Made by a program: the position numbers and the translations under genes. A stretch of DNA of 63,554 nucleotides, the filler included, from Reclinomonas americana ATCC 50394 (lineage: Eukaryota): NCBI GenBank assembly GCA_048213135.1. It is 15 parts of 15 records of this genome, joined end to end, with 100 filler letters (N's around TTAATTAATTAA, not from the genome) between each part and the next. Parts side by side here need not be neighbours in the genome. Positions count along the whole stretch, not along the records: positions 25,607 to 32,885 come from AFZH01024259.1; 14 more parts are not named here. One strand, given 5' to 3'. The notes beneath the pieces are model-generated. The model worked only from the letters and a program-made list of their open reading frames with translations. It did no database searches and had not been told where the DNA came from. Shown in pieces: positions 3,271 through 60,755 of this stretch. How positions within the stretch are numbered: the first letter of the stretch is position 1; each line of letters begins with the position of its first letter.

Positions 3271-3370
3271 NNNNNNNNNNNNNNNNNNNNNNNNNNNNNN
3301 NNNNNNNNNNNNNNTTAATTAATTAANNNNNNNNNNNNNNNNNNNNNNNNNNNNNNNNNNNNNNNNNNNN
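3271..3370. other. Artificial contig linker (N44-TTAATTAATTAA-N44); 14 copies in the window
   Basis: The same linker, with stops in all six frames, starts at 3271, 6871, 12106, 15548, 25507, 32886, 34712, 43157, 44739, 47261, 52069, 56382, 58001 and 60756. Confidence 0.99.
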
Positions 3371-6766: not shown

Positions 6767-6970
6767 TTGTTTGTGTGTGCGTGAGAAGTAAAGACGGTGA
6801 GTGAGTGTGAGAGTTTCTCGCACTTGAAAATTCCACTTACTTTATCACAAAAGAAAAGGTGCGCGAGAAGNNNNNNNNNNNNNNNNNNNNNNNNNNNNNN
6901 NNNNNNNNNNNNNNTTAATTAATTAANNNNNNNNNNNNNNNNNNNNNNNNNNNNNNNNNNNNNNNNNNNN

Positions 6971-12105: not shown

Positions 12106-12205
12106 NNNNNNNNNNNNNNNNNNNNNNNNNNNNNNNNNNNNNNNNNNNNTTAATTAATTAANNNNNNNNNNNNNNNNNNNNNNNNNNNNNNNNNNNNNNN
12201 NNNNN

Positions 12206-15547: not shown

Positions 15548-15647
15548 NNNNNNNNNNNNNNNNNNNNNNNNNNNNNNNNNNNNNNNNNNNNTTAATTAAT
15601 TAANNNNNNNNNNNNNNNNNNNNNNNNNNNNNNNNNNNNNNNNNNNN

Positions 15648-25506: not shown

Positions 25507-25606
25507 NNNNNNNNNNNNNNNNNNNNNNNNNNNNNNNNNNNNNNNNNNNNTTAATTAATTAANNNNNNNNNNNNNNNNNNNNNNNNNNNNNNNNNNNNNN
25601 NNNNNN

Positions 25607-27614
25607 ACCGCAGGAGGAGAGCGCCGGTGGAAGCCGCAGCGATAGTGGTGCATTCCACTTTTACTTGCGTGTTTCCAAGGCAATGGAGGGAATGAGGAAG
25701 ATGTTCCACAAGATAAGAAACAAAAAAGCGGATCCCGATCGGAAACAAGAGACGCCCGCGGCCGCGGCCACGCGCGCCGCCACCAAGGACTTTTGCTCGA
25801 CCGCTGCTCCCATTATCCTCTTGTGGCAGTGTGTGCAGCAGCGCAAGTTTATGTTCGGAACCACCATTTGTCGACAGTGCGCGACAGCGCGCGACAAGCG
25901 CACTCCGGCGGTGAACGAGTTGCTCGACAGTGCAGACACCATTCTGGGCAACACGATGAAAAGTTTCTCGACAATGATTGGAGAGCGCATGGCACTGCGC
26001 AGGTATGAATGTCCTCATTTGTCTAGATCTGCAAAATTAGCATTTTGTATTGACAATTTTTTGATTCGAATTCTGCAGGGCGCTTGCACAGTCGATTCAA
26101 GACACCGTCAGGAGTGTGCTCCAGACTGTCATCAGCATGCACTTTGGCACGTCACCTGCCGAGAGACGGTACTATTTGTGGCATTGCGCGTGCTTTCGTT
26201 CGCTGCGCTTTTTTTCACTTTCTCTGCTTGCAGGGAGATAATGCTCCATCTTCGCTCCATGGATTCTATGAAGACAGGAGCGCAGGTGCGCCGTCTCTTT
26301 CGCGAGAAACATGTCAAGCAATCGTTCGATCAGCTTCTCGAGTTTGGGCTTGTGAGCAAGGAAGACTTCAAGTTTGAGAAGGCGGCCGGTGCAGAGAGTG
26401 GTGGCGGTGGTGGTAGCGGCAGCGGCAGTGCTAGCGGCAGCAACAGCCAGGCAAGCGGAGTGTCAGTGCGTGTGGAGGTACCCAAGGTGAGTACTCGTGC
26501 ATGCCTGCAAAGCAAACTTGCCCTGGTAGGATGAGCACCAGTTGCTCCATGGTAAAAGTCTGGGAAACCCATGGAATTTCCACGAAATCCAGCTTGCGCA
26601 CCAAACAAAACTTACCGTTGTTAACAAGTTGGAGAAAGCTTGGAATTCTTCGATCCTGGAATTCCCCTGGATCGGCTCCAACTGCAATCCAGTCGTTCCA
26701 GGGGCAGTTCCACCTGTTCCAACGATTGCACCATCGTGAGCCAAGCGAGAAAAGGAAGGTGCATCCAACGTAATTCCAGCCGTTTCCACTCCGTGCTCCA
26801 GGGTCGTTCCAGGGTGAATCCACGTTCCGCCCATCGTACGTTCCACCCCCGGTTCCTGCCCCATTCCACCCTCGTTCCAGACTCGATTCCACCCTCGTTC
26901 CAGACTCTGCTCCACCTCCGTTCCACTCTCGCTCCCACAGCCCACCACCCGCCCACCCCGCCCCGTGCACCCCACCCTCCCAATCAGCTTACGCACACAG
27001 TTGTGGATACATGCATTAAGTGCTCATTCTTCTGCAACACGCACTCCCAGCCCCACCTCGCAAGCCTCGGCGCTTGCGTCACTCAGCTGGTGGCGGAATC
27101 CGCCTCCACCACCGGTGCCTGAACGGTCCCTCCGTGCAGCAACGTCGCCGTGCAATGCGGGCACAAGCAACGCTGGTGCGGCGTCCACCGATAGCGAAGT
27201 CGATCGGCGACTCGGGACGAGGAGAGGCAGAGGAGGCCGCTCGTCTCGTCTCGTCTCAATCTCGTCTCGCGCGCTTCGTGTTCGAGCAGCACAGTGCAGT
27301 CGAGCTCGAGCGGAGAATGCCGACAGCGGCCGCTGTTCTCTGCGCATCACGGTCGGTTAGACGCACGACAATCGACGCAGCGATGAACAGGCACTGCAAG
27401 GTACTAACCGAAGCAAGCAGGGCGCCGGTGTGATGCGACGCATGCGACTCGTCCGCGTCCATCACTTCCGCCAAAAGCGAAACCTGCGCGGTGCGATGCA
27501 GTTAGTAATGACCCGAAGAGGTGCGGGAGAGAGAGAGAGAGAGATGATGATGATGATTGATGATGACGCATTCTCTGCGTGATCGCTCGCTTCTCTCTCT
27601 CTCTCACACACACA

Positions 27615-27646
<32 letters not shown>

Positions 27647-30600
27647 TGCGCACGCACGCGAGGCAATCGCACCTTCACGTTTGCGTCGTGGTGGACGGTG
27701 TTCACGCCACCTTCGTCGCCGCTGCTGCACCGGCCACTGTTGCCGTGTCAGCGGTGTGCACAACCAGCTGCATGGGCGAGCCCGAGTTGGTGATGGCGCC
27801 TGCCTGAGTCAGTGAGTGAGAAGGAGGTCGGAAAAAATGACGAAGTCTTTTCCCGCAGCGCACAAACAGTAAAGCAAACCCCACCGCACAAAACGCCAAA
27901 GCGCGCGCAAACTCACCTTCAGTGTCGCGCTCCGTGTGCCGAGTTGATGGCAGCAGAGGAGAGCGCAGTCAACACAGACGAAGCTGGAGCTATTGTGGCG
28001 GAGAGGAGAGTGAGAAAGGGAGTGGCGGAGGAACAGGAAACATGTTCCGCGCATGTCACACATGTTGCACAGCAAGAAACACACGCGCACGCACGCACGC
28101 ACGCACGCGCCACAACGGCACACAGATGACAGCAGACCACAGAGTGGGGCACGCAGAGAGACAAGAGCACGAGCAAGAGGCACTCACTTGGGAGAAAGTT
28201 GTCGGCGAGACAACCATCCGAGGGTGGCTGTGATGCCGAGCCTGCCTGGCAACAAAAGCAGTGAAACCCTCATGCGCACATGAGAGTGGAGGCCATGGCG
28301 CCGCTGATAGCAACCGAGAGAAGATGAGGCAACCTCCGCTCTCGCAGACAAATGAAGAAATGTGTGTGAGAAGATATCCGACGAAACGGAACGTGAGTGC
28401 GGGAGATGCCACCACCTCCGCCGCGGCCGTCGATGCTGCCTGCTGCGCAGTTGACTGGAGTGAGTGGCATTGATGGTGGGCACACGCAGCGTCAAGGCCG
28501 CAGCGGCGTGGAGGCGTGACGGCAGACATCTCAGTGCGGAGTATTGACCCGGACATGCAGACAGACAGACTCTGCGTGTGTGTGCGCGTGCCGCGTGTGC
28601 ACTGCAGTGCCTGGCGCTGTCGACTGTGCACTCCAGTTGTGTGCAACACACGCAGTCCGCGTGCAAGGCCAGGCAAGGTGATGGCGCTTGACAGGAGACA
28701 GAATACGACAATCGAACATGAGCGACACGGACGACTTGACACAGCGCTTGTGCGTGCTGCTCGTGGTCGCCAGTGAGCGCGCGACGATCAGTGTGACGAG
28801 CGCGACAATGCGTCGAACACCCTCACTGCGGCGGCGTGCAACATTGACACAGACAGCGTACAGCGCAAGAACACATGTTCAATCAGACACCAGAACGAGA
28901 TACCGCCACTCCCACTCAGACGCAAAGTCTGTCGCAGAGGCACAGCTTGTGCGCACTCAACGCCACCGAGTAGGATGACTGCCCACCCATGGTTTCCCAG
29001 CGAAACACACTGCAGAGCACCACGGTGGAACGCACACGCCCATCAGCGCGAAAATCAGACCCTTCGCAGACACGCACTCGTCGAGGAAAACACGAAACCC
29101 TTGAAGCGTGCTGTGCAGTCTTGGGGAACACAGTCTGGCCTACAAGGTGCACCATGTTGGAACGCAAGAACACGAAAGATGCGTGTGCAGTCGCGCAAAC
29201 ACTGCAAATCATGTGTTTGCGATGCCCAGCACGTGGGTTGCGTGCGCGACGGTGGGACTTGCGGTCAACATCAGTGCATATGCATACCTCAACACCTCCG
29301 GCTGTTGGTGGAGTGCAGTGCACACAGAGGCGGGCCACAGCAGACATCAGGAAACAGTGTCCACTGGGAACAAAACGCACCGTTGCGTGCACGCCCCGAA
29401 AAAACACGTTGCTCCACTGCGAAACATGTTGACACACCCTCTGGCGCACAGAGCGCAGTGTCAGCGCACTGTGGCGTGGCGGTGGCGCCTCGGCAACACG
29501 CAAAACTTGACTGTCCTCCGACTTCGGGCAACTTCCAGCTGCGTCCTAAAAGCCCTAGCTCACTACCAAGATGTTTTCTTGAGCCACGGTGAGCGGTCAT
29601 CAGTAGCCAAGGGTGTGCTCTCTCGGCTAGTTAGCTCAAAATGCTTAACGGACCACGCAGAAACGCACACTTCGCAAACAAAAAATCTTTCGGAAAATCA
29701 ACTCGAAGTCCATGCACTTGTCAAGCTGCTTGCCCTCAAAATCAGCTCTGTTCGTTTTCTGCTCGTTGGAAGGTCCGAGAAACTTTCTGTTAGGTGCCAT
29801 GCACACTTTTCCTTCGTCTGGCTTCGCTTGGCTCGAGTTGGCCGGTCTCCCAGAGGCCTGGGCTGCCCTCCGAAGTCGTCGTCGGCCTCCATAGCCGTCG
29901 CAGTTCACCATCCACGCCGTCGATCAGCCGTTGGATGAGCGATCGCACTGTGCAAGACACGCAGCGGCACGACCAGCGCGCGTTCGTGCACCGGCAGCAC
30001 AGTGACTCTCCTCTCGCTTCACCGTGTGGTTTCGTGTGCAAGTGAGTGTGTGCGATGTGGCAACGCTCTCACTGGCACTGGTGCTAGTGCTGCTCCACGC
30101 ACGCTCGATCGCTTTTGAGTGGGGCGCTCATCCAGGCAACCCGTGTCTATCCCACGGCACGGCGCTGCACGATCGCCTGCGTGCGCGTGACGAAGGCCCA
30201 CCGCGTGTGTTTGTCTGTGTGTGTGCACTGCGAACTGCCTCGCCGAGTCGATACCGCTGCAGCGCAATACCGCTGACAGTCGCCAGTGGGGTAGGGTAGA
30301 GAGTGAGCGGCGTGGTGGCGCGCGTGAGTGATCACTGGTCGTCGCTTGGTGTCACACACGAGAGCCGTCGATTTTTCCGATCGGCAGTGGCGCGATCACT
30401 CGCGCAGCGAGTGTGATCATGGTGGAGTGTTCTCACCACCACCACCACGACAAGCAAGGGAGCGAGTGGGAAGCTGTCAACAGCTTGCAGAACGCGCACA
30501 AGCCGCTGCAAGCGAGTGTGATCAACTTGACGAGTTTCCACCCGGCCGACTGATCCTTCACAGCTCTTCGTTGATAGCAAGCCGAGCGGTGACGCATCGA

Positions 30601-30957
30601 GTGCTGGTATCCTTCGCAGCATGCGACAGGAGCCGTGTTAACTCTGCCACACACTGCAATGCCGCTGCGTCACGCACACACAGATGCGTGACGCGTGCGC
30701 ATCGGAACAATGTCAATAGCGCTGTGCTTGACACACACGGTGCATCTGTGTGTGTGTTGGTGCGTTCACACGTGTGGCTGTGTGTATCTATGTGCACGCT
30801 TGCGCGTGCGCGTGTATGAGTGCGTGTGTGTGAGTATGCAACTCACGACATGGCTGGTTTTGTTGGCTTCACCCACGCAGTGATGCAAGCCTTGTTTGTG
30901 CCACATCGCCACCGTGCGTTCCTCACTTGGCGGCAGTATCTCGTGGAGCGAGTTGTG

Positions 30958-31007
<50 letters not shown>

Positions 31008-32885
31008 GTTTGTATGTGTGTGCATTTGTGCAAGCATGTACGTGTGCACGTGTGCAGAGGTTTGCATGTGTGTGTGCATGTGTGTGTTGACGTGCATGTT
31101 TGTGCATCAGACTCCACCGTCGACATCGACCTCGCACACCATCGGTGCTCCAGGGTTGTTCCAAGGCACTCCAGACTGGGGTGTCCCGTTCCAACGCGTG
31201 ACCCAGGGCTCACTGGAACCACATGTCCGGCTCCATCCGTGTGCCCTGGAACTGCTGGGTCGCGTGTTCGGTTCCAGAGGCACTTGGAAACCGAGTGGGC
31301 AGACAGTGGAGCAACTTTTTTTTGTCGCCAATCGTGGTTTTCTCGTTGGGTACTGTGTGGCGACACTCTCCAGTGCACAGTGATGCCAAGGAAACGAGTG
31401 TACGCACTCAGGAACGATGTTTTTCTGAACATGGGATATATTCTGGATTGGACTGGGTCGGCAATTCCAGCGGTTGGATCCTGGAACCGCTGGGTCAGTC
31501 GAACACACTCCTACCAGGGTTGATCGCTGCATGAGTGTAATTCTTTTGTTGATTTTTTCAGTCCTCGGCCGCAAAGGACGGCGAGGAGGAGAAGAAAGCG
31601 AGTGCTGCAACTGCCCTTGGGAAACGAGCGGTGAGTTGGGTCGTGGTACGCGTGCTGACACTAGAATTCTATAGCTAATCTGCTTTTAATCTTGAAATAG
31701 ATGGGCAAGCTGAGTCTCGGGAGAGTTAGCCACGCAGATAGGAAACGCCTCGTCTTCTTCTCGGTGATGGCGCTGCATCTGCTTCGCTTAATTATCGCCA
31801 TCATTACCACCCACGGTCGGGTGGAAGAGGTTGATATCGACATTTTTGTCTGTTTTTTTCAATTTGTTCGGTTACTCATGTGCACACACACACACACACA
31901 CAACGCAGGGGCAAGTGACTATCGACATTAGTGTCGCTAACGACGTGTTCCAGGCCAACACCATCGCTGGCTTGCTGAAGAAGATGTCTGCGCGTCAAAT
32001 GATGCATGTTCTCGATGAGTCTTGCTTTCGGCCTTTCTTCGAGTCACACACTTTCCGCGCGTTCCTGGACAACATTCTGTGTGATGAGAATAGCAGCAGG
32101 CAGCATTTTGTTGCTTTCAATTGGAAGACGAGGTGAGAACGATACTGGCAACTGCAATTTTTGATTCATTTTGCGTAAATTAAATATTCTCCGCACGCAG
32201 CGACGGCAAGGAGAGCGTTGTTTACATGCCACCAGACATCGCACGGAGAAACGAGGTTATCAAGCAGATTCTTAATGCGTATGCGGTTAGTAGGCGCGGC
32301 GATTTTTTCTCTTTTCATGTCTATTTTTAGTACTAGTCACAATTTTGGTTTTTTTTGCACCAGTCACATGCTACCGCGGCTCGAACCAAGGGAGGAGTGT
32401 GCGTAGCGTTCATCCGTGTCTTGCGTGCTGCGCGTGCGTTCATCCTTACATGTTGATCAATGTTTTTCGTTTTTTCGTTTGTGTGAAGTGCTGGAATCTA
32501 CCAATATCGCCGAAAGGTGGCCGAGGCAATGGTCGACATGCCGGTCAACGCTCGCGAAGCATCTGGGTTTCAGCTGCAGTTTGACAAGTCGGGCGCCGTG
32601 ACGAGCGCCATGTGGGTTGCATCTGCGAATCTGCAGGAATTTCCGGGCCACCGTAACCCACTGCATCTTTCCTCCCTCCTCTCTCTCTCTCTCTGCGCAG
32701 CCTCCTCCCGTATTCATTTCGGCTGGATGTGAGCGAAAAGGCTGCACTCTTGACATCATTGTCAGACAGCGATCCCCTGTTGCGCTTATCGGCGGACATT
32801 CCTTCGTCGTCGTTCTCCTGGATGGATTCAGAGCAGCTGGAGGATGTCGATGCTGCAGAAGCAAGCCACTTCTTCGAGGAGATAA
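25607..32885 (+). CDS. Hypothetical multi-exon gene whose intron hosts the transposon (both ends truncated)
   Basis: Exon ..VRVEVPK|gt (26487) joins in frame to ag|SSAAKDGEEEKKA.. (31562). Further exons run to 32885; introns are comparatively AT-rich. Confidence 0.65.
26540..26935. repeat. Left subterminal array of TCCA motifs
   Basis: TCCA starts at 26677, 26688, 26697, 26709, 26718, 26764, 26775, 26785, 26797, 26808, 26819, 26842, 26865, 26876, 26888, 26899, 26911, 26922. Confidence 0.85.
31110..31500. repeat. Right subterminal array of TCCA/TGGA motifs with a hairpin
   Basis: GTGCTCCAGGGT(C/T)GTTCCA is shared with the left array, motifs occur in mixed orientation, and a 9-bp stem CCAGCGGTT/AACCGCTGG lies at 31467-31493. 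Confidence 0.75.
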
Positions 32886-33017
32886 NNNNNNNNNNNNNNN
32901 NNNNNNNNNNNNNNNNNNNNNNNNNNNNNTTAATTAATTAANNNNNNNNNNNNNNNNNNNNNNNNNNNNNNNNNNNNNNNNNNNNACGTAACTGTTCAGT
33001 ACACTCGCACACACACA

Positions 33018-34811: not shown

Positions 34812-37800
34812 CGTCACCGTCACACCCGTCGCCACAGTCGGTGCAGTCGACGACGGCGTCGTGCAGCTCGCCGCAATAATCACCGCCGACGCATCATATG
34901 CCGCCCCAAGACTACTCGACAGCAGCGTCACAAATCCCGCTCCACTCAGCGACACCGTCTGTCCCGTTCGGTTGTTGATCGCAGGCACCGACAGACTCGT
35001 CACATTGGCTGTGACGCCACACACACGAAAGACAATCACACACGAGTCAGCCGACACTGCTCCACCACTCACATCCACATCCACCACACACACATATGCA
35101 CTCCCTCTCCCACTACCACTCACCAACTCCAAGGCTCCCAACTTGCGTGTACTGCGCAAACGCGGCATTGCTCCATCGCACACACAGCACATACGATCCC
35201 GCCGCCACACTGCTCGCATTCACCGAGAGCACCATGCTCGTCGGCGGCGTCGACGACGACACACTGATCACGGCAGTCGTTGCTGCCGCCGCACAACTCG
35301 TCGAAATCACAAACGCCGCCGTGTCGCCGCTCACATTCACCAACGAGCTTCCCGTCAACGCAATCGTCTGGCTCGGTGTCGTCACCGTGAATACGGCTCG
35401 AGGAACCTGAGTTGACCACGTGGCTGTGCGTGCACACAAGCAGTGTCAATCAATCAGTCACTCACTCACTCGCCCCACCAAGCTCCTTCCCAAAATACTC
35501 ACCAACATTCAGAGTCGCCGCTGACCCACTCGCCGTTGTGTATGCACTCGTCGCCAGCCACCGCACACACACCGTGTACGCCCCGGCTGCAGTCGCGCTG
35601 GCGTCAATCGTCAGTGTGATCAGAGTGTCCACCGTCCGCACGCTCGTCATCGTCACCACACTCGACGGCGTGCCAGTGCACGTTCCCGACGACAGCACAA
35701 ACGCCAGCGGATCGGTGCTCACGTCTGGCATCGCAGTGCCGCTGATTTGGATCGTTCGCCCAGACAGCGCGGCCATCGCAGGTGGATTGACACCACTAGC
35801 CGACGCCACCACCAGCTGTGTGACGGCCACAAGCGAATAGTTGCCAGCGCCGCCAAACTGGATGCACACTGCACAGTACCCGGCACTCACAGCCGCCGGC
35901 GTCGCACCCTGTGCCGTCACGACCAACACATTCGCTCCAGCCGTGCTCACCAGAGACTGATTCACCATCACCGGGAAGCTGCCGCCGCTCGCCGTGCACG
36001 TCATCGATCCCACCTCCAGTCGCACATTGTCCGACATGCTCAGCGCACGCCCAGAGACAGAGAACACCGCACCCGCACCGCTGATGTTGATCACACTTGG
36101 CGCGTATCCAGTTGCCGAAGAAACTGCAAGAAGGCGAACAAATCATCAGACGGCTGACCCATCGAGAGTTCTCTCGTTCGCGTGCGTACTCACCAACAGT
36201 GAGTGTGCCACCGACTTTTACAAACGTGCTCGTTCCGTTGAACTTGCCGCACACCGAGTATGCTCTGCGCATGCACACGTGTCAGAACAAGATTCATCGC
36301 TGCCAAAGAGTCATGAAGAGCAGCAAAGACACACCCGCTGCTCATGATTGTGTTGGCGGCAGCTGTGCTCGCCACTACAGTTCGCGCGCCAGCGACGCCA
36401 CCAATACTCGCCGCAGTCACCAACGGAATCGTTCCACCAGTACCCGGACACACCGCTCCCGATTGCAGACTGAACACGTCTGTCGTCGCCAATGCCAGTC
36501 CAGTGATCGTCACCTGCGCACCAGCAAACTGCGCGAGAATCGACGACGGCGAGAACGACGTGCCGCTTCCCACTGCATTGCAAAAAAACATATGCATGAG
36601 AGGGGAATAAGGTCTACGCACGCAGAGCCACCACCGCCGCACTCACCGACACTCAGTTGAGTCGCGCCAACAGTCGTGAATGTTGCAGTGCCAGTGAACT
36701 GGATGCACACCGCATACAGTCCCACCGTAGTCAACGTCGACACAGCTGCCGGCTGCACTGCTAGCGTGCGTGCTCCCGCTACGCCAGCGTACGTTGGCGA
36801 TGACAACCCAATGCCGCCGCCACCCGACGCACACGTCGTCACGCCGAGTTGCAGCTGCACAGCATCGGTGGCCAGCAACCCAGGTCCGGTCACTGTCACT
36901 TGCTGTGATGTTGACTCGGCAAGAATCGTCGCAGGTGTGAAGCCAGTCGTCGACGGCACTGTGTGAAGAATGCACAGTCACAACCACACAATGTTTTGCG
37001 TGCCGACACACCAAAAAAAAACATACCAGCAGCCAGCTGCGTGACGCCGACACGGACAAATGATCCTCCACCACCATACTGGATGCTGCGTTTGAAGGAA
37101 AAGGGAGAGAAAGATCAGCATGAAAGCGCTTCGTACTCCAATACACACAATACACCCACCACACAGCATACACATCCGTCGGTGCAGTTGTCACAGCCGG
37201 AACCGATGCAGTCAGCGTCCACGCTCCTGCGGATCCCGTCCGCGAAGGCGAAGACGACACCAGGTTGCCGCCACCAGAGCACACTGTTCCCGATTGGATT
37301 CGAATCTTGTCGCTGGTGCGCAACCCCAGACCCGATATCGTGATCACCTGTCCAATGGTTTCCGCCAGAATCGACGCCGGCAGGAACGATGTCGCATTCG
37401 CCACTGCACCGCACTCGCAAGTTAATCGATTGCTTCCACAGAATTCTCTCTGATTCACACACACACGCACACACGCACTCACCTCCTGTGAGTTGTGACG
37501 CAGATACTTGCACCCACGTGCCCGTGTTGGAGACGTACTCCACACACACAGCAAACGTGTCGGGACTCGCTGACGGCAACGCGAGACCCGTGCCGCCCAC
37601 GGTTGCCACAATTTCCGTCAGAATCACCGAGTTGAGCGTCGCCGCAATCGTCTGACCCGATCCAGTACAATTGCTGCCCGGCATGAACATCACTTGATTG
37701 ATCGACAGCGTCGAGAGGCCGGCGCCAGTGATCGTCACTTTCTCCGTCGGCACCTCGGCCATGATTGATGATGGACTGAAGGCCGACACCGTTGCTGCAC

Positions 37801-44838: not shown

Positions 44839-45040
44839 ATTCCTCAGGGTTTCCACAAGTCACAGCCGTGTAGTTCCTTACTCGCGTCTGCTTTCCACCG
44901 AGTTATCCACAGAATCCACAGCGGTTAACACCGTTAAGGAGTTAACACTGAGAAGCGGCGATCCGATCACCAGACGATGGGGAGAACGCTGAGCGGATCA
45001 CAAAACCTCCGAGCGTAGGGATACGCGGGACTGTGGGGCT
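44839..45040. promoter_or_regulatory. Bacterial oriC fragment (dnaA-dnaN intergenic region) with DnaA boxes
   Basis: Perfect TTATCCACA at 44903-44911, degenerate boxes at 44849, 44891 and 44912, an AT-richer GTTAAC tract, all directly upstream of dnaN. Confidence 0.85.
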
Positions 45041-45108
45041 AGCATGGGAAGCCCTGCACCGGCAGGACTGACGACGACATGTCACAGAACGACGACAAGG
45101 GAGCACCC

Positions 45109-46251
45109 GTGAGGTTTCAGGTCAACCGCGATGTCTTCAGCGAGGCAGTGTCGTTCGTCGTCAAGCTCCTCCCGCAGCGGAACCCGCAGCCGATCCTCGC
45201 CGGAGTGCTGATCGAAGCAGACGGTTCGGGCCTCACGCTCTCCGCGTTCGACTACGAGGCATCCGCTCGCACGACCATCGAGGCCACCGTCGAGACACCG
45301 GGCACGATCCTGGTCCACGGCCGTCTGCTCTCCGACATCGCCAGCCGCCTCCCGAACGCTCCGATCGAGATCGCCGTCGAGGACGACGGTGGGATCACCG
45401 TCACGTGCGGCTCCGCCCGATTCACCCTCGCCGCCATGCCCGTCGAGGAATATCCGTCGATCCCCGAGGTCTCCGGATCGTCCGGCGTGGTTCCCGCCGA
45501 CGACTTCGGCACCGCGATCGCGCAGGTCGGCTTCGCCGCGTCGCGCGACGACGTCACCCCGGTGCTGACGGGTGTGCAGCTCGCCGTCTCCGGTCACAAC
45601 CTCAGCCTCGTCGCGACCGACCGCTACCGGGTCTCGATCCGCGACGTGCCGTGGGACGGCGAAGAGGTCGAGGCCACTGCCCTCGTCCCGGCGCGCACCC
45701 TGGTGGAGGTCGGAAAGACCTTCGGCCACGCCGGCACGATCCAGATCGCGTTCTCCGGCGCCGGTGAGCGCGAGATCATCGCCTTCACGGCGGGCAACAA
45801 GACCGTGACGTCGCTGCTGATCAAGGGCAACTTCCCGCCGGTCCGCCGTCTCTTCCCCGAGCAGACCGATCACTATGCCGTCGTCAACACCGCCGACCTC
45901 GTCGAGGCCGTCCGCCGTGTGTCGCTCGTGCTCGACCGCGCTGCCCCGCTGCGGTTCACGTTCTCGAGCGACAACGTCACGATGGATGCTTCGGGCAGCG
46001 AGCACGCTCGGGCATCCGAGTCGGTCGACGCGATCCTCTCGGGCGGCGACGAGGTCACCCTCGGCCTGAACCCGCAGTACCTGATCGAGGCGCTCGGTGC
46101 GGTGAAGAGCGAGTTCGTCCGCGTGACCTTCACGTCGAGCGACAACGCCAACAAGCTCAGCCCGGTTCTCATCACGAGCCAGACGTCGGTGGATCAGGCC
46201 GGTCTCGACTCGTTCAAGTACCTGCTGCAGCCCAACCTCCTCCTTCGCTGA
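45109..46251 (+). CDS. dnaN: DNA polymerase III beta clamp (Actinobacteria, Microbacterium-like)
   Basis: Full-length; VATDRYR, GNFPPVRRLFP, LNPQYL, KYLLQP. GTG start preceded by AAGGGAG. Confidence 0.97.
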   Translation: MRFQVNRDVFSEAVSFVVKLLPQRNPQPILAGVLIEADGSGLTLSAFDYEASARTTIEATVETPGTILVHGRLLSDIASRLPNAPIEIAVEDDGGITVTCGSARFTLAAMPVEEYPSIPEVSGSSGVVPADDFGTAIAQVGFAASRDDVTPVLTGVQLAVSGHNLSLVATDRYRVSIRDVPWDGEEVEATALVPARTLVEVGKTFGHAGTIQIAFSGAGEREIIAFTAGNKTVTSLLIKGNFPPVRRLFPEQTDHYAVVNTADLVEAVRRVSLVLDRAAPLRFTFSSDNVTMDASGSEHARASESVDAILSGGDEVTLGLNPQYLIEALGAVKSEFVRVTFTSSDNANKLSPVLITSQTSVDQAGLDSFKYLLQPNLLLR

Positions 46252-46273
46252 CCTCCTCCGCCAACCGTTCCGG

Positions 46274-46374
46274 CCCCTTCGACAAGCTCAGGGACCCAGC
46301 GAGGCTCGGGACCCAGGTCGCGCGAGGATGCAGTTCCGCTCCGCGTTTCGTCTCGCTTCGCTCGCTCAACGACC
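46274..46374. repeat. REP-like extragenic repeats
   Basis: CCCTTCGACAAGCTCAGGGACCC and GCGTTTCGTCTCGCTTCGCTCGCTCAACGACC, motifs I recall as common in Microbacteriaceae intergenic DNA. GCTC(A)GGGACCCAG is locally duplicated. Confidence 0.7.
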
Positions 46375-46463
46375 GGGCTACCGCGGATATCGCACGCAGT
46401 CGGAGAGCGGAGCGAGCCGCTGCCACCCCCGTACCCACCCGTTCGTCGATGCGTACAACGCAA

Positions 46464-46555
46464 GGGAGTCGGGTCGTTCCCGGAGTGAGCATCGGGAGGG
46501 GCCCGCGAAGCAGGAGGGAACCCGCTCTGCGAACGAAGGGAACGACCCGACTCCC
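46464..46555. repeat. Perfect 18-bp inverted repeat enclosing 56 nt
   Basis: GGGAGTCGGGTCGTTCCC (46464-46481) / GGGAACGACCCGACTCCC (46538-46555). Confidence 0.9.
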
Positions 46556-46621
46556 GACCCCAGGACCAAGACCCAAACCCAAGAAACCATGACTGTCCGA
46601 CCCCGAAGATAGGCTGATCCC

Positions 46622-47260
46622 GTGATTGTGGAGCACCTGAGTCTGGTCGATTTCCGCAATTACGCGACCGCTGAACTCGCCCTTCACAGCGGCCCGAACG
46701 TTCTCGTGGGCCGGAACGGCCAGGGGAAGACGAATCTCGCGGAGGCCGTGGTCTTCCTCGCGACGCTGGGTTCGCACCGGGTGTCGTCGGATGCGCCGAT
46801 GGTGCGTGACGGTCAGGAGTACGCGATCATCCGGGCTCGTCTGTCCCATGGTGAGCGCAAGGTCCTCGTCGAGGTGCAGCTGAATCGACAGGGGTCGAAC
46901 AAGGCGCGCATCAACGGCTCTCCTTCGAAGGCGAACGAGCTTCCGCGGTATGCGCATGTGGTCCTGTTCGCTCCCGAAGACCTGCAGATTGTCCGCGGGG
47001 ATCCGTCGGCACGTCGTCGTTTCGCGGATCAGCTCCTCATCCAGCGCACTCCGCGGATGGCGGCGGTCCTGGCGGACTACGACCGAGTGCTCAAGCAGCG
47101 CAATGCGCTGCTGAAGTCGGCGCGTGCGCGCGGCATCCGTGGGGAGGGTCTCAGCACTCTCGATGTGTGGGACGACAAGCTCGTCGCGCTCGGCTCGGAG
47201 ATCATCACCGCGCGTCAGCGTCTCGCCGCGGATCTGCAGCAGCCGGTGGCCGATGCCTAC
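46622..47260 (+). CDS. recF: DNA replication/repair protein RecF (3' truncated)
   Basis: FRNY, Walker A GRNGQGKTNL, GSHR, LFAPEDL..G.PSARRRF, QRNALLK. Confidence 0.97.
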
Positions 47261-51860: not shown

Positions 51861-52481
51861 TTCGGCAGGCATTCCGACTACGGAGCAACGATCGTGCGTG
51901 GACGGCAGAATTCCTTGGCGAAGGTGGTTTCGATGGTGGCGGCTTGTATCGTGAAGTTCCGTGCGCGCTCTTTCGCTCACTCAAACACTGTTTGCTGTAC
52001 TCAAAAAATTTCACTGGCAATCAGTCATTGTCGCTGATTGGCACCGATCTGATGTTTGTCGGCCTTTTNNNNNNNNNNNNNNNNNNNNNNNNNNNNNNNN
52101 NNNNNNNNNNNNTTAATTAATTAANNNNNNNNNNNNNNNNNNNNNNNNNNNNNNNNNNNNNNNNNNNNCCCCCCCCCCCCCCCCCCCCCCTCGGTTTTTT
52201 TCTCATTGCTGCCTCTGATTCTCTCCCAGCGTACACGTCGGAAGAGGTCATGCGTGAACGACTGCTGTATGCCAGCGAGAATACCGTGGCCATTGAGTTG
52301 CGCAGTGTTTCTGTGTGTGTGTATTCATCGCGTGACCCTCCACTATGCTGACTCCCTCGTATCTCGCAGCACTGGTGTGTGAGAGCTGTTGTCGTACAGT
52401 GCTTTACGTTTGTTGACGCACTCACTTCCTGCTTCGTTGTTATCAGACTTCAACTATCACGGAACATACGACTTTGAATAG
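47361..52481 (+). CDS. Large HECT E3 ubiquitin ligase (multi-exon; spans a linker; 5' truncated)
   Basis: HECT start FLGEGGFDGGGLYRE near 51910-51955, C-terminus YTSEEVMRERLLYA..AIDTDF after the gap, and a long acidic tract at 48580-48890. Confidence 0.85.
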
Positions 52482-56481: not shown

Positions 56482-56745
56482 GGCGAGAGCCTCCCTGTCG
56501 ATCTTGTCCAGCCCGGCGCTGTAACAGGCGACGAGCTCGAGCGCCGGCAGTCTGGCGAGTAACGCACGATCCAGCCGCGCCTTGCCCGTCGTGGCGATGC
56601 CGCGGATGCGGGCACCATGCGCGGCAACGAACGCGTCGATCTCGTCGGGATCACCTGGCCCGAGCAGATCGAAGCGCTCCGCCAGAGCCGCGATCGTCGC
56701 CGCGGGTATCCCGGATGATAGAACGAGGACGGTCGCGCGCCGCAT
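56482..56745 (-). CDS. D-2-hydroxyacid dehydrogenase, N-terminal part
   Basis: IRGIATTG..LLARLPALELVACYSAGLDKID. The start overlaps the SBP stop (TGATG). Confidence 0.85.
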
Positions 56746-58191
56746 CAGGCCTTGGCGAGCCAGGCTTCGGCGAGCTGCCAGGCGCCGCCGGAATCGAGCA
56801 CGATGTTCTGCAGCTCCTTGCGCGCGACATGGCGCGCCTCGCGGAAGAACAGCCAGGAATAGTAGTCGTTCCTGTTGAGCGCGGTCTGGAGCTCCTTGTA
56901 GATCGCCTTGCGCTTGGCCTGCTCGGTCTCCTCGCGGCCCTGGTCGACCAGGCGGAAGACCTCCTCGTCCTTGATCCCGGACCAGTTCTGCGCTGCGGTT
57001 CGCCCGAAGAACGGGCCGAAGACATGGTCGGGGTCGGCGCGCGGGACGTTGACGCGCCCCATCGCCAGTTCATGCTGCAGGCCGAGCACCTTGGGCACCC
57101 AGGCCTGCCGCTCGAGGATCTCGATCTCCATGTTGATCTTGAACGGCTTGAGCTGGGCCTGGACGATCTGCGCGACCTGCGTGTCGGGATCGCGCTGGAT
57201 GATCGAGAGCTTGCAGGTGAAGCCGTTGGGCTGGCCACCCTCCTTGAGGAGGGCCTGGACCTTCGCCGGATCGAGCTTCGGCTGCGGCACGCTCGCGTCA
57301 TAGGACCAGTCGCTCGGCGGCACCCAGGTCGGCGTCACCGCGCCGAAGCCGCGGGTGATGCCCTTCATCAAGACGTTGCGGTCGATGCCGTGGTTGACGG
57401 CAGCGCGTAGATGCGGATTGGCGAAGATGCCCTTCGAGACGTTGAAGGTCAGCCATTGCGCGATGCCCGGCGGCACCGCCACCAGCGTCAGCGCCGGATT
57501 CTTCTCGACCTCCTCGAAGTCGCGCGGCGTCACGCCGTCGACGAGATGCACCCGCCGACTTGACCTCGACCATCTTGACCGCGGTGGTCGGGATGATCCG
57601 CAGCGTCACCGCATCGGCATAGGGCAACCTCTTGCCGTCGGCGCCATCACGCCAATAGCGCTCGTTACGGATGAAGCGGATCTGGCTGCCGCCGACCCAT
57701 TCCGCAAACTTGTACGGCCCAGTGCCGACCGGCTGGCGGCCGAAATCCTGGCCGAGCTTCTTCAGCGCCGCCGGCGAGCACATCATGCCGGCCTCCACTG
57801 CGAGTGAGGCCAGCGCCGCGCCGGAGGGCTGCTTCAGGTTGATCTTGACCGTCATCGGCCCGGCCACCTCGGCTCCGGCGAGGTCGGCGAGATCGGGAGT
57901 GCGCGGCGCGGTCGAGTTCGGCGCCACGACGCGCGCGATGTTGAACACCGCCGCCTCGGCATCGAAGGGCTCGCCGTCATGGAAGACGACGCCCTCGCGC
58001 NNNNNNNNNNNNNNNNNNNNNNNNNNNNNNNNNNNNNNNNNNNNTTAATTAATTAANNNNNNNNNNNNNNNNNNNNNNNNNNNNNNNNNNNNNNNNNNNN
58101 CCCCCTGCGCAAAGGCAAGCTCCGGCAGTCCGGCGATGAGTCCGGCGCCGGACGCGCCGAGCAGAAGACCGCGACGTGAAATTAGGGCCAT
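56745..58191 (-). CDS. Peptide/nickel-type ABC transporter substrate-binding protein (family 5), Tat signal; spans a linker; apparent frameshift ~57553
   Basis: MALISRRGLLLG signal, RBS GGAGGAG, REGVVFHDGEPFDA, PVGTGPYKF, RAAVNHGIDR. Confidence 0.9.
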
Positions 58192-58243
58192 TGGCGTGAT
58201 CTCCTCCCACGGCGCTCTTGATCCGGCGCCGACAGAGAGGTCA

Positions 58244-58263
58244 CCTATCAGATATGTTATGAG
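58244..58263. promoter_or_regulatory. Putative GntR operator, copy 1
   Basis: CCTATCAGATATGTTATGAG, 19/20 identical to copy 2, with palindromic core TATC-N-GATA. Confidence 0.65.
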
Positions 58264-58390
58264 ATAGGCAAACGGTTTTTCTCGACCGACGGAAAGCCGC
58301 ATTGCGTGGCGATAGGGCTTGGCACTCGGACCGCCGCTTAACCGCAAGCAGCAACGCTGAGAATAGCCCCTGCCGATCAGCTTGTTCCTG

Positions 58391-58431
58391 TTGACGCGCT
58401 CTTCAACCAAGCCTATCTGATATGTTATGAG
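58391..58431 (+). promoter_or_regulatory. Putative sigma70 promoter and operator copy 2 overlapping the regulator start codon
   Basis: TTGACG at 58391, 17-nt spacer, TATCTG at 58414. CCTATCTGATATGTTATGAG at 58412-58431 includes the ATG at 58427. Confidence 0.6.
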
Positions 58432-59164
58432 TGAAATCGCCGCCCTTCAACCCGACAAGCAGCGCCTGACCGAAGCGGTCACGCAGTTCGTGATCGACCG
58501 CGTCGCCGAGCGCGTTTATCGCCCGGGCGACCAGCTTCCGTCCGAGTCCGAGCTCGCCAGGCGGCTCAATGTCTCGAAGCCGGTGGTGCGCGAGGCGCTC
58601 GGGCGTCTCTCGGCGCTCGGCATCGTCCAGATCCAGCAGGGCAAGCCGACTACGGTGAAGGGGCTCTCGGTCGCCCCGCTCGACCAGTTCCTGCGCCTCG
58701 CCGTCCGCGTCACCGACAACGGCCTGCGCGAGGCGGTCGAGCTCAGGCGTGCCATCGAGGTCGAGGTCGCGGCGCTTGCCGCCGAGCGGGCGACGCCGCT
58801 CCAGGTCGAGCCGGTCGAGGTCGCGCTGGAGAAGATGCGCGCCAATATCGACGGCGATTTCGAGCGCTGGCTGCAGGGCGACCTTGCCTTCCATGTCGCC
58901 CTTGCGCGCTGCTCCGGCAACGCGCTGCTCGAGCATCTGGTGAGCGCGCTCGTCGACACCATCAAGTTCACCCAACGCGCGCTCGGCATGCAGCGCGACC
59001 TGCGCGACCCGGCCGCAACGGTCGCCCGTCATCAAGCCATCGTCGATGCGATCAAGGCCCGCGACCCCGCGGCGGCGCGCATCGCCATGACCACCCATTT
59101 CGCGGTGTCCGACGCCGTCATCGCCGAGATCGCCCGCGACCACCGCCGGCTCGATCGCTACTGA
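58427..59164 (+). CDS. GntR/FadR-family transcriptional regulator (FCD domain)
   Basis: PGDQLPSESELARRLNVSKPVVREAL wHTH; D..FH..LA..SGN; H..I.DAI...D. Confidence 0.95.
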   Translation: MSEIAALQPDKQRLTEAVTQFVIDRVAERVYRPGDQLPSESELARRLNVSKPVVREALGRLSALGIVQIQQGKPTTVKGLSVAPLDQFLRLAVRVTDNGLREAVELRRAIEVEVAALAAERATPLQVEPVEVALEKMRANIDGDFERWLQGDLAFHVALARCSGNALLEHLVSALVDTIKFTQRALGMQRDLRDPAATVARHQAIVDAIKARDPAAARIAMTTHFAVSDAVIAEIARDHRRLDRY

Positions 59165-59176
59165 GGGATCGCGTCC

Positions 59177-60118
59177 GTGCTGCCCTATCTGGCCAAGAAG
59201 CTCGCGCAGATGCTGCCGGTGGCGTTCTTCGTCACCATCATCGTCTTCGCGCTCACCAACCTGCTGCCGGGCGACCCGACCGTCACCATCCTCGGCGAGC
59301 AGGCGAGCCCCGAGCAGCGCGCCGCCGTGCGCATCGAGTACGGTCTCGATCAGCCGGCCCCGGTCCGCTACGTCACCTGGCTCGCCCGCGTCGCGCAGGG
59401 CGATTTTGGCCGCTCCTTGCGCACCCGCGAGGATGTCGGCGCGATGCTGGCTGCGCGCATCCCGGTGACGCTCGAGCTCGGCCTCCTCTCGATCCTGATC
59501 GCGGTCGCCATCGGCATGCCCGCCGGCATCCTGGCCGCGCGCTTCCGCGGCAGCCTCATCGACGTGGCCGCGAGCCTCATCGCCATGTCCTCGGTCGCAG
59601 TGCCCTATTTCTGGATGGGCGTGCTGCTGATCATGCTGTTCTCGCTGAAGCTCGGCTGGCTGCCGCCCTCCGGCCATATCCGCTTCCTCGACGATCCCGG
59701 CGGCAACCTCCGGCTCATGGTGATGCCGGCGCTGACGATCGGCACCGCCTTCGCCGCGCTGGTCATGCGCCAGACCCGCGCCTCGATGCTTCAGGTGCTG
59801 TCGATGGACTATATCCGCACCGCCAGGGCCAAGGGGCTGAGCGAGCGCCTCGTCCTGATCCGGCACGCATTGCGCAACGCGCTCATCCCAATCGTCACCG
59901 TCATCGGCCTGCAGATCGGCGCGCTGCTCGGCGGCGCGGTCGTGACCGAGACGGTGTTCGCCTTGCCAGGGCTCGGCCGGATGCTGGTCGACGGCATCTT
60001 CCAGCGCGATTTCCCGGTGATCCAGGGCGCGATCCTGTTCATCGTCATCGCCGTCTTCGCCGTGAACCTGCTGACCGACCTGCTCTACCGGGCCTTCGAC
60101 CCGCGCGTGAAGGCGTGA
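59177..60118 (+). CDS. DppB/OppB-type ABC permease
   Basis: LPGDP, GDFGRS, DYIRTARAKG, HALRNA, RDFPVIQG, DPR. Confidence 0.95.
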   Translation: MLPYLAKKLAQMLPVAFFVTIIVFALTNLLPGDPTVTILGEQASPEQRAAVRIEYGLDQPAPVRYVTWLARVAQGDFGRSLRTREDVGAMLAARIPVTLELGLLSILIAVAIGMPAGILAARFRGSLIDVAASLIAMSSVAVPYFWMGVLLIMLFSLKLGWLPPSGHIRFLDDPGGNLRLMVMPALTIGTAFAALVMRQTRASMLQVLSMDYIRTARAKGLSERLVLIRHALRNALIPIVTVIGLQIGALLGGAVVTETVFALPGLGRMLVDGIFQRDFPVIQGAILFIVIAVFAVNLLTDLLYRAFDPRVKA

Positions 60119-60122
60119 GGCG

Positions 60123-60755
60123 ATGGCGGCCGTGACCGGATCGATGCCCCCCGCCGCCGCAGCGACGCAGCGTGCTCCCCGCTCCCCCGGCGCGATCATC
60201 CTGCGCCGCATCCTTGGCTCCTGGCAGGGCCGCTTCGGCACGATCGTGCTCGCCGTCATCGTTGCGCTCGGCCTGCTCGCACCCTGGCTCTCGCCTTATT
60301 CGCCGGTCGATATCGACCCCGACGCCTTCTCGATGCCGCCGAGCGCGGCGCATTGGTTCGGCACCGACGAGATCGGCCGCGACGTGCTCTCGCGCGTGCT
60401 GCACGGCGCCACGGTCTCGCTGCAGGTCGTGATCTTCGCGATCGGGCTAGCGCTGATCGCCGGCTCGCTGCTCGGGCTGGTTTCCGGCTGGCTCGGCGGC
60501 CGCTGGGACGCGCTGATCATGCGCGTCATGGACGCCTTCCTCGCCTTTCCGCTGCTGGTGCTGGCGCTCTCGATCGTCGCGGTACTGGGTCCTGACCTCG
60601 TCAACGCCATGCTCGCCATCGCCATCACCAAGATGCCCGGCTTCGCCCGGCTGGTGCGCGCGGAGGTGCTGACGCTGCGCGAGGCCGACTATGTCGTGGC
60701 AGCGCAGGCCTGCGGCGCCCGGCCCTTTCGCATCCTGTTCAGGCACATCTGGCCG
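60123..60755 (+). CDS. DppC/OppC-type ABC permease (3' truncated)
   Basis: HWFGTDEIGRDVLSR, RVMDAFLAFP, ARLVR..L..YV.AA..G, RHIWP. Confidence 0.95.

Follow-up and report, generated by a model that had tools for sequence, protein, structure and literature searches.

A putative non-autonomous DNA transposon in a once short intron of a Reclinomonas americana gene

The locus

The stretch of DNA analyzed in this work (the window) comprises 63,554 bases, linkers included, of Reclinomonas americana ATCC 50394, in 15 contigs of 1.5-9.9 kb each that are separate pieces. Our subject is a candidate 5-kb transposable element, bounded by short inverted repeats, in an intron of a multi-exon gene. Both element and gene lie wholly inside one contig (25607-32885; 7,279 nt, GC 0.559). 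Besides this contig, the evidence draws on the remaining 57 kb of the window, on public collections and on published papers. In order of position, the features of the locus are:

25683-26486, + strand: host gene, upstream part; exons 25683 (ATG)-26002, 26079-26168 and 26234-26486, with an open frame across GT..AG junctions
26487-31561, + strand: host intron, GTGAGT...TTTTTCAG; 5,075 nt, or 73 nt minus the element and one TTG
26518-26520: left copy of the target-site duplication (TSD), TTG; exactly 3 nt, as the 4-nt comparison (CTTG against TTGA) fails
26521-26531, + strand: left terminal inverted repeat (TIR), CCCTGGTAGGA; 11 of 11 positions complementary to 31509-31519
26532-26970, + strand: left subterminal region; C-rich, 16 TTCCA/TGGAA motifs against 0.64 expected
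26971-31069: internal region; 4.1 kb without detectable coding capacity by Pfam and codon periodicity
31070-31508, - strand: right subterminal region; G-rich on the + strand as the mirror of the left end, with 8 TTCCA/TGGAA motifs
31509-31519, - strand: right TIR, TCCTACCAGGG on the + strand; exact reverse complement of the left TIR
31520-31522: right TSD copy, TTG; the sequence directly 3' of the right TIR
31562-32285, + strand: host gene, downstream part; exons 31562-31630, 31701-31763, 31909-32132 and 32201-32285

When the seven exons of the host gene (63-320 nt each, the first bounded at 25607/25683-26002) are joined at canonical GT..AG sites, the resulting frame contains no stops; in the two alternative frames there are 13 and 12. 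The joined exons also display codon periodicity (purine 0.67 at position 1 and A 0.12 at position 3; GC 0.45 at position 2 and 0.66 at position 3), which is present on either side of the insertion, and the gene probably runs on until the contig ends at 32885. The six introns are 76, 65, 5,075, 70, 145 and 68 nt long. Subtraction of the element and of one TTG from the third (5,075 - 4,999 - 3) leaves 73 nt, next to 65-145 nt for its five sisters, which, together with the absence of stops, bears out the original prediction that excision would leave an intron of typical size with the flanking exons in frame. From the donor to the left arm of the element there are 34 nt, and from the right arm to the acceptor 39 nt (42 nt counting the TTG copy). 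Around the insert, neither the host splice sites nor the open frame is broken, and the 39 nt separating it from the acceptor hold a pyrimidine tract and, presumably, the branch point too.

Protein-level searches with the host gene returned no relatives: Pfam gave no families in the 293-aa upstream frame, a word-indexed protein search gave no match, exhaustive HMMER with exon 6 (74 aa) gave no matches in 1.84 billion representatives, and the Atlas gave no usable match. These results could speak for a real element in a dead or mis-modelled host, i.e., for flanking exons that belong to separate genes, or to a pseudogene in which a 5-kb intron need not be spliced. Such a host seems improbable, given that the frame stays open over seven exons with canonical splice sites, and that codon periodicity is seen both before and after the insert.

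The ends of the element

The element, as bounded by its TIRs, spans 4,999 bp (26521-31519). The 11-bp perfect TIR and 3-bp TSD originally proposed were reproduced, both in their coordinates and in the TTG/TTG flanks. Extension of the TIR stops at 11 nt, since outward TTG faces CAA and inward base 12 is T on one arm and G on the other. A longer TIR was sought by aligning the left 1.3 kb with the reverse complement of the right 1.3 kb in blastn, which gave only the 11-nt TIR, CA/GT microsatellite matches and motif matches of 9-15 nt. With up to one mismatch allowed, CCCTGGTAGGA has two matches in the whole window, and both are the arms of the element. TIRs directly flanked by a short target duplication are the generic mark of class II TIR transposons, and this is the arrangement found here (11/11 TIR positions, TTG/TTG).

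The regions just inside the two arms are rich in a short motif. The left-hand 450 nt of the element contain 16 copies of TTCCA/TGGAA and the right-hand 450 nt contain 8, as compared with 5 in the 4.1-kb middle (1.2 per kb, i.e., background level) and 82 in the rest of the window (57,323 non-N bases). With 0.64 expected per 450 nt, the Poisson P is 2e-17 for the left end and 4e-7 for the right end, values that are overstated because the motif was picked from the element's own ends. The rank order is unaffected by this: among the 450-nt windows of the whole 63 kb, the left end ranks first and the right end second, with the next best holding 5 motifs. The extended consensus of the motif is cgTTCCA[g/c], and some 400 nt at either end are packed with its copies. 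At the left end 13 of the 16 motifs point inward and 3 are reversed, and at the right end there are 4 each way. Of the 37 forward [GAT]TTCCA[GC] sites in the window, 12 fall in 26577-26920, and GTTCCAG has 4 copies at the left end and 3 in the right end after reverse complementation, with none on either strand of the middle. Several of the left-end motifs are carried by a 23-nt tandem array (26841-26935, 3.7 copies). TGGAATT lies 51 nt from the left terminus and 50 nt from the right one, in equal relative orientation, and the GC skew is mirrored between the ends (-0.31 at the left, +0.18 at the right). The subterminal repeats claimed in the original prediction are therefore present, as TTCCA/TGGAA clusters at both ends.

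How much of this could arise by chance was estimated from the window itself. Counted contig by contig, perfect 11-nt inverted pairs spaced 100-20,000 nt apart number 1,279, and four of these have identical 3-nt flanks: two CA/GT microsatellite pairs, the element, and one unrelated pair at 36515-37322. The analytic expectation for an 11-nt TIR with 3-nt flanks is 0.79 in the window. The element nevertheless rises far above chance by two independent features, the nearness of its arms to the splice sites of an intron and the motif clusters just inside both arms; TIR and TSD pairs with both arms no further than 50-100 nt from two given splice sites are expected only 1e-5 to 5e-5 times.

These figures bear upon the simplest alternative, namely an ordinary long intron, in which TIR and TTG are coincidental, and in which low-complexity or regulatory sequence with no relation to them accounts for the TTCCA-rich stretches. 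In its favor, about 0.8 TIR11 and TSD3 cases are expected per window, another case outside microsatellites does exist, and a second copy was found neither in the window nor in the 24-mer searches of metagenome_contigs and genome_contigs. We hold an ordinary intron to be quite unlikely, though, since it would leave two things to coincidence. One is the placement of the arms, at distances of 34 nt and 42 nt to the splice sites and with a typical residue of 73 nt, for which the expectation is the one just given. The other is that the 63 kb hold just two strong motif clusters and that each abuts one of these arms, with mirrored skew.

The other perfect 11-nt inverted repeat with identical flanks, at 36515-37322, consists of TGCGCACCAGC / GCTGGTGCGCA, 808 nt apart and flanked by ACC on both sides. 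It lies in coding-looking sequence and is without motif clusters. With ~0.8 such pairs expected by chance, we take it to be that chance pair.

The interior of the element

None of the 76 stop-to-stop open reading frames (ORFs) of at least 45 aa inside the element reaches the Pfam cut-off. Up to E = 1, Pfam lists weak matches for 13 ORFs (best E 0.017), with no transposase among them. Three-base periodicity like that of the host was sought in the 17 longest internal ORFs, most of which lie within 26971-31069, and none of the 17 has it. A codon score trained on the host exons, which makes for a circular and weak test, does not exceed 13 within the element, while the exons reach 15-23. The interior, at a GC content of 0.54-0.63 that resembles other eukaryote-like contigs, holds strongly skewed stretches and simple repeats, including (CA)21 at 27605-27646, (TG)34 at 30954-31022 and others. 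It thus reads as non-coding, and the element is therefore taken as non-autonomous, which lends support to this part of the original prediction.

The element could instead be autonomous, or have been so until recently, if its transposase gene were split by many short introns, or were too divergent or decayed to be recognized by Pfam at the level of ORFs. A length of 5 kb is indeed that of autonomous elements (the autonomous PIF/Harbinger consensus averages ~4.1 kb in the available text of PMC4482050), and host exons are only 63-320 nt long, so a split gene could escape ORF scans. Yet there is little probability in this reading, considering that all 76 ORFs stay below the Pfam cut-off in a listing that extends to E = 1, that no internal ORF shows host codon periodicity, that codon scores fall below those of the exons (a weak and circular argument, as said), and that microsatellites and skewed low-complexity sequence fill the interior.

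The (CA)21 and (TG)34 repeats are inverted relative to each other and lie ~1.1 kb and ~0.5 kb from the element ends. This symmetry may be coincidental, because similar microsatellites occur outside the element, e.g., at 31883-31902.

Nature of the insertion

Taken together, the features at 26521-31519 are probably those of a non-autonomous class II (cut-and-paste, TIR) DNA transposon, which would have inserted into what was a 73-nt intron of a multi-exon gene. In the mechanism we propose, a transposase encoded elsewhere would bind the cgTTCCA arrays and the TIRs, pair the two ends and cut at the TIRs. Integration would proceed with a 3-nt staggered cut, whose repair would leave TTG on both sides. 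Provided that the host can splice 5 kb, the insert would then leave the host transcript together with the intron. The insertion of a transposon into an intron is an event ordinary in kind. The empty allele that this interpretation predicts, by removal of the element and one TTG, would read ...AAACTTGATCGCTG...

Several points weigh against a transposon. An 11-nt TIR with 3-nt flanks is by itself at chance level; the choice of TTCCA/TGGAA came after inspection of the element's ends, which inflates the P-values; and the host gene model is made up of an open frame and codon periodicity only, with no homologue found. In addition, only one copy of the element is seen: blastn against the window returns the self-match only, and none of the other contigs of the window has the TIR (with up to one mismatch) or a comparable motif cluster. 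The assembly of a 5-kb repeat as a whole in a 7.3-kb contig, amid contigs of 1.5-10 kb, likewise suggests that its copies are few or diverged. Exact 24-mers of both ends had no matches in metagenome_contigs or in genome_contigs, which carries little weight, as only near-identical copies are detectable in this way and these collections are mostly prokaryotic. In the literature, the TIR or its complement occurs as a string in 15 papers, of which the 10 listed deal with unrelated biomedical, yeast or plant work, as far as titles and the openings of abstracts tell.

The fragmented state of the assembly, which includes bacterial contigs, also invites the thought that the contig is a chimera, with foreign DNA assembled between the two halves of the gene. 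We regard such an artefact as very improbable. A mis-join would not at once produce ends that are perfectly inverted, duplicate the flanks and restore a 73-nt intron cleanly, and the GC content of the interior (0.54-0.63) is like that of the other eukaryote-like contigs.

Comparison with known superfamilies

The CMC (CACTA/EnSpm) superfamily, which Yuan and Wessler reportedly defined in 2011, has a DDE transposase with C(2)C and H(3-4)H motifs, and its non-autonomous En/Spm derivatives go by the names dSpm or I-type. No transposase of the CMC type was found in the element (0/76 ORFs at the Pfam cut-off). According to the portions of text available for the papers cited here and below, CACTA/EnSpm elements have CACTA ends, TIRs, several hundred nt of closely spaced subterminal direct or inverted repeats and a 3-bp duplication (PMC8978399). 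The termini of EnSpm are given as 5'-CAC..GTG-3', and those of the wider CMCT as mostly 5'-CA..TG-3', with duplications of 2-5 bp (PMC12730594); elsewhere 5'-CAC/GTG-3' termini are called invariable (PMC6004678).

The original prediction placed the element in CMC, and in part this stands: its duplication, at 3 bp, falls within the 2-3 bp of that superfamily, and subterminal arrays such as those described in PMC8978399 are present, although they are typical of CMC rather than exclusive to it. What does not fit are the termini, which are 5'-CCC..GGG-3' instead of 5'-CAC(TA)..GTG-3' or CA..TG. For the claim that CMC TIRs may begin with CCC no supporting source was found, the descriptions seen giving CAC or CA (PMC12730594, PMC6004678). 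Architecture and duplication length would hence be En/Spm-like whilst one defining feature of CMC fails, and the assignment to CMC is not established. The likeness to non-autonomous En/Spm (CACTA) elements extends to the 3-bp duplication, the short TIRs and the subterminal repeat regions (PMC8978399), and the element can also be likened to those internally non-coding derivatives of En/Spm that use a transposase supplied in trans. It differs from them in its 5'-CCC..GGG-3' termini, in having been seen as a single copy, and in coming without a known CMC transposase or autonomous partner.

Other superfamilies have transposases and duplications of their own. That of Zator is ISAzo13-like, AcademX has an Academ transposase with a nuclease, and piggyBac duplicates TTAA, which is at neither junction of the element. 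MITEs (miniature inverted-repeat transposable elements) are non-coding, TIR-bounded sequences with a short duplication, often located in introns. Besides CACTA/EnSpm, duplications of 3 bp are made by Zator, AcademX (3-4 bp) and PIF/Harbinger (PHIS) (PMC10045372). Zator is alike in the length of its duplication, but the amphioxus Zator-1 is described with a TSD of TAA/TTA and a 33-bp TIR (PMC12905397), as opposed to TTG and 11 bp. AcademX covers the length of the duplication too (PMC10045372), and here again the 76 ORFs of the element all fall short of the Pfam cut-off. The 5'-CC..GG-3' termini are common to piggyBac and the element (PMC10045372), but the former makes a 4-bp duplication (PMC10045372), whereas the flanks here (..CTTG and TTGA..) share 3 bp only. 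PIF/Harbinger likewise duplicates 3 bp, and most of its TIRs are shorter than 60 bp (PMC4482050); however, the duplicated bases are TWA, and A or G is the usual first base of the TIRs (PMC4482050), against TTG and C in the element. With MITEs the element has in common that it is non-coding, that it has TIRs and a short duplication, and that it lies in an intron, but its 4,999 bp are far from their limit of ~800 bp (PMC6004678). Zator, AcademX or an undescribed family are thus further candidates by duplication length, with no transposase found in the element.

It is tempting to go further and speculate that the element stands for a family, and possibly a superfamily, of cut-and-paste transposons hitherto undescribed, from a eukaryote that has been poorly sampled, and that the host tolerates a 70-fold enlargement of one intron in a genome whose introns are ~70 nt long. 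Our reason is that the combination of CC..GG termini, a 3-bp duplication other than TWA and cgTTCCA arrays matches none of the superfamily descriptions compared, in so far as their available text goes. We put this forward tentatively, as a rather unlikely extension of the interpretation above.

If further copies confirm the transposon, the element ends and the cgTTCCA motif would serve as a probe for the family and its transposase, in an organism whose genes are largely orphans. The locus also offers a natural experiment on whether a spliceosome accustomed to introns of 65-145 nt can remove one of 5 kb. For the present, the case is of interest chiefly for annotation, in which the two halves of the host gene should be joined across the insert.

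Other observations in the window

The contigs of the window are joined by 100-nt linkers, each consisting of 44 N, TTAATTAATTAA and a further 44 N; the contigs being separate, features are not to be read across these joins. The linkers lie at:

3271-3370
6871-6970
12106-12205
15548-15647
25507-25606
32886-32985
8 further sites

Over the whole window, neither Rfam matches at the gathering score nor tRNAs were found. The single Rfam listing in the contig of the element, a sub-threshold match to MIR1507 (25.5 bits against a gathering score of 73), was rejected as chance.

The first contig holds Kelch-repeat exons (795-1648, + strand) and an exon of an N-terminal protein methyltransferase (1871-2698, - strand; Methyltransf_PK, E = 1.6e-34). 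The latter, which is NTM1-like, has a single database match, 52% identical to a plant protein, and its Atlas clusters were uninformative. The contig starting at 52169 opens with a run of at least 20 C (52169-52188), probably an end artefact of sequencing or assembly.

Three contigs have bacterial gene content at a GC of 0.65-0.68 (44839-47260, 56482-58000 and 58101-60755), and are probably a contaminant or an associated bacterium in the assembly. Their genes, taken together, are dnaN (with all three beta-clamp domains) followed by the start of a RecF/SMC_N gene, an SBP_bac_5 gene, and a GntR/FCD regulator with two ABC permeases. The SBP_bac_5 match (56748-57999, minus strand) is divided between two ORFs that overlap but differ in frame, one of them (57301-57999) covering profile positions 24-168 and the other (56748-57605) positions 170-366, which suggests a frameshift or a sequencing error.

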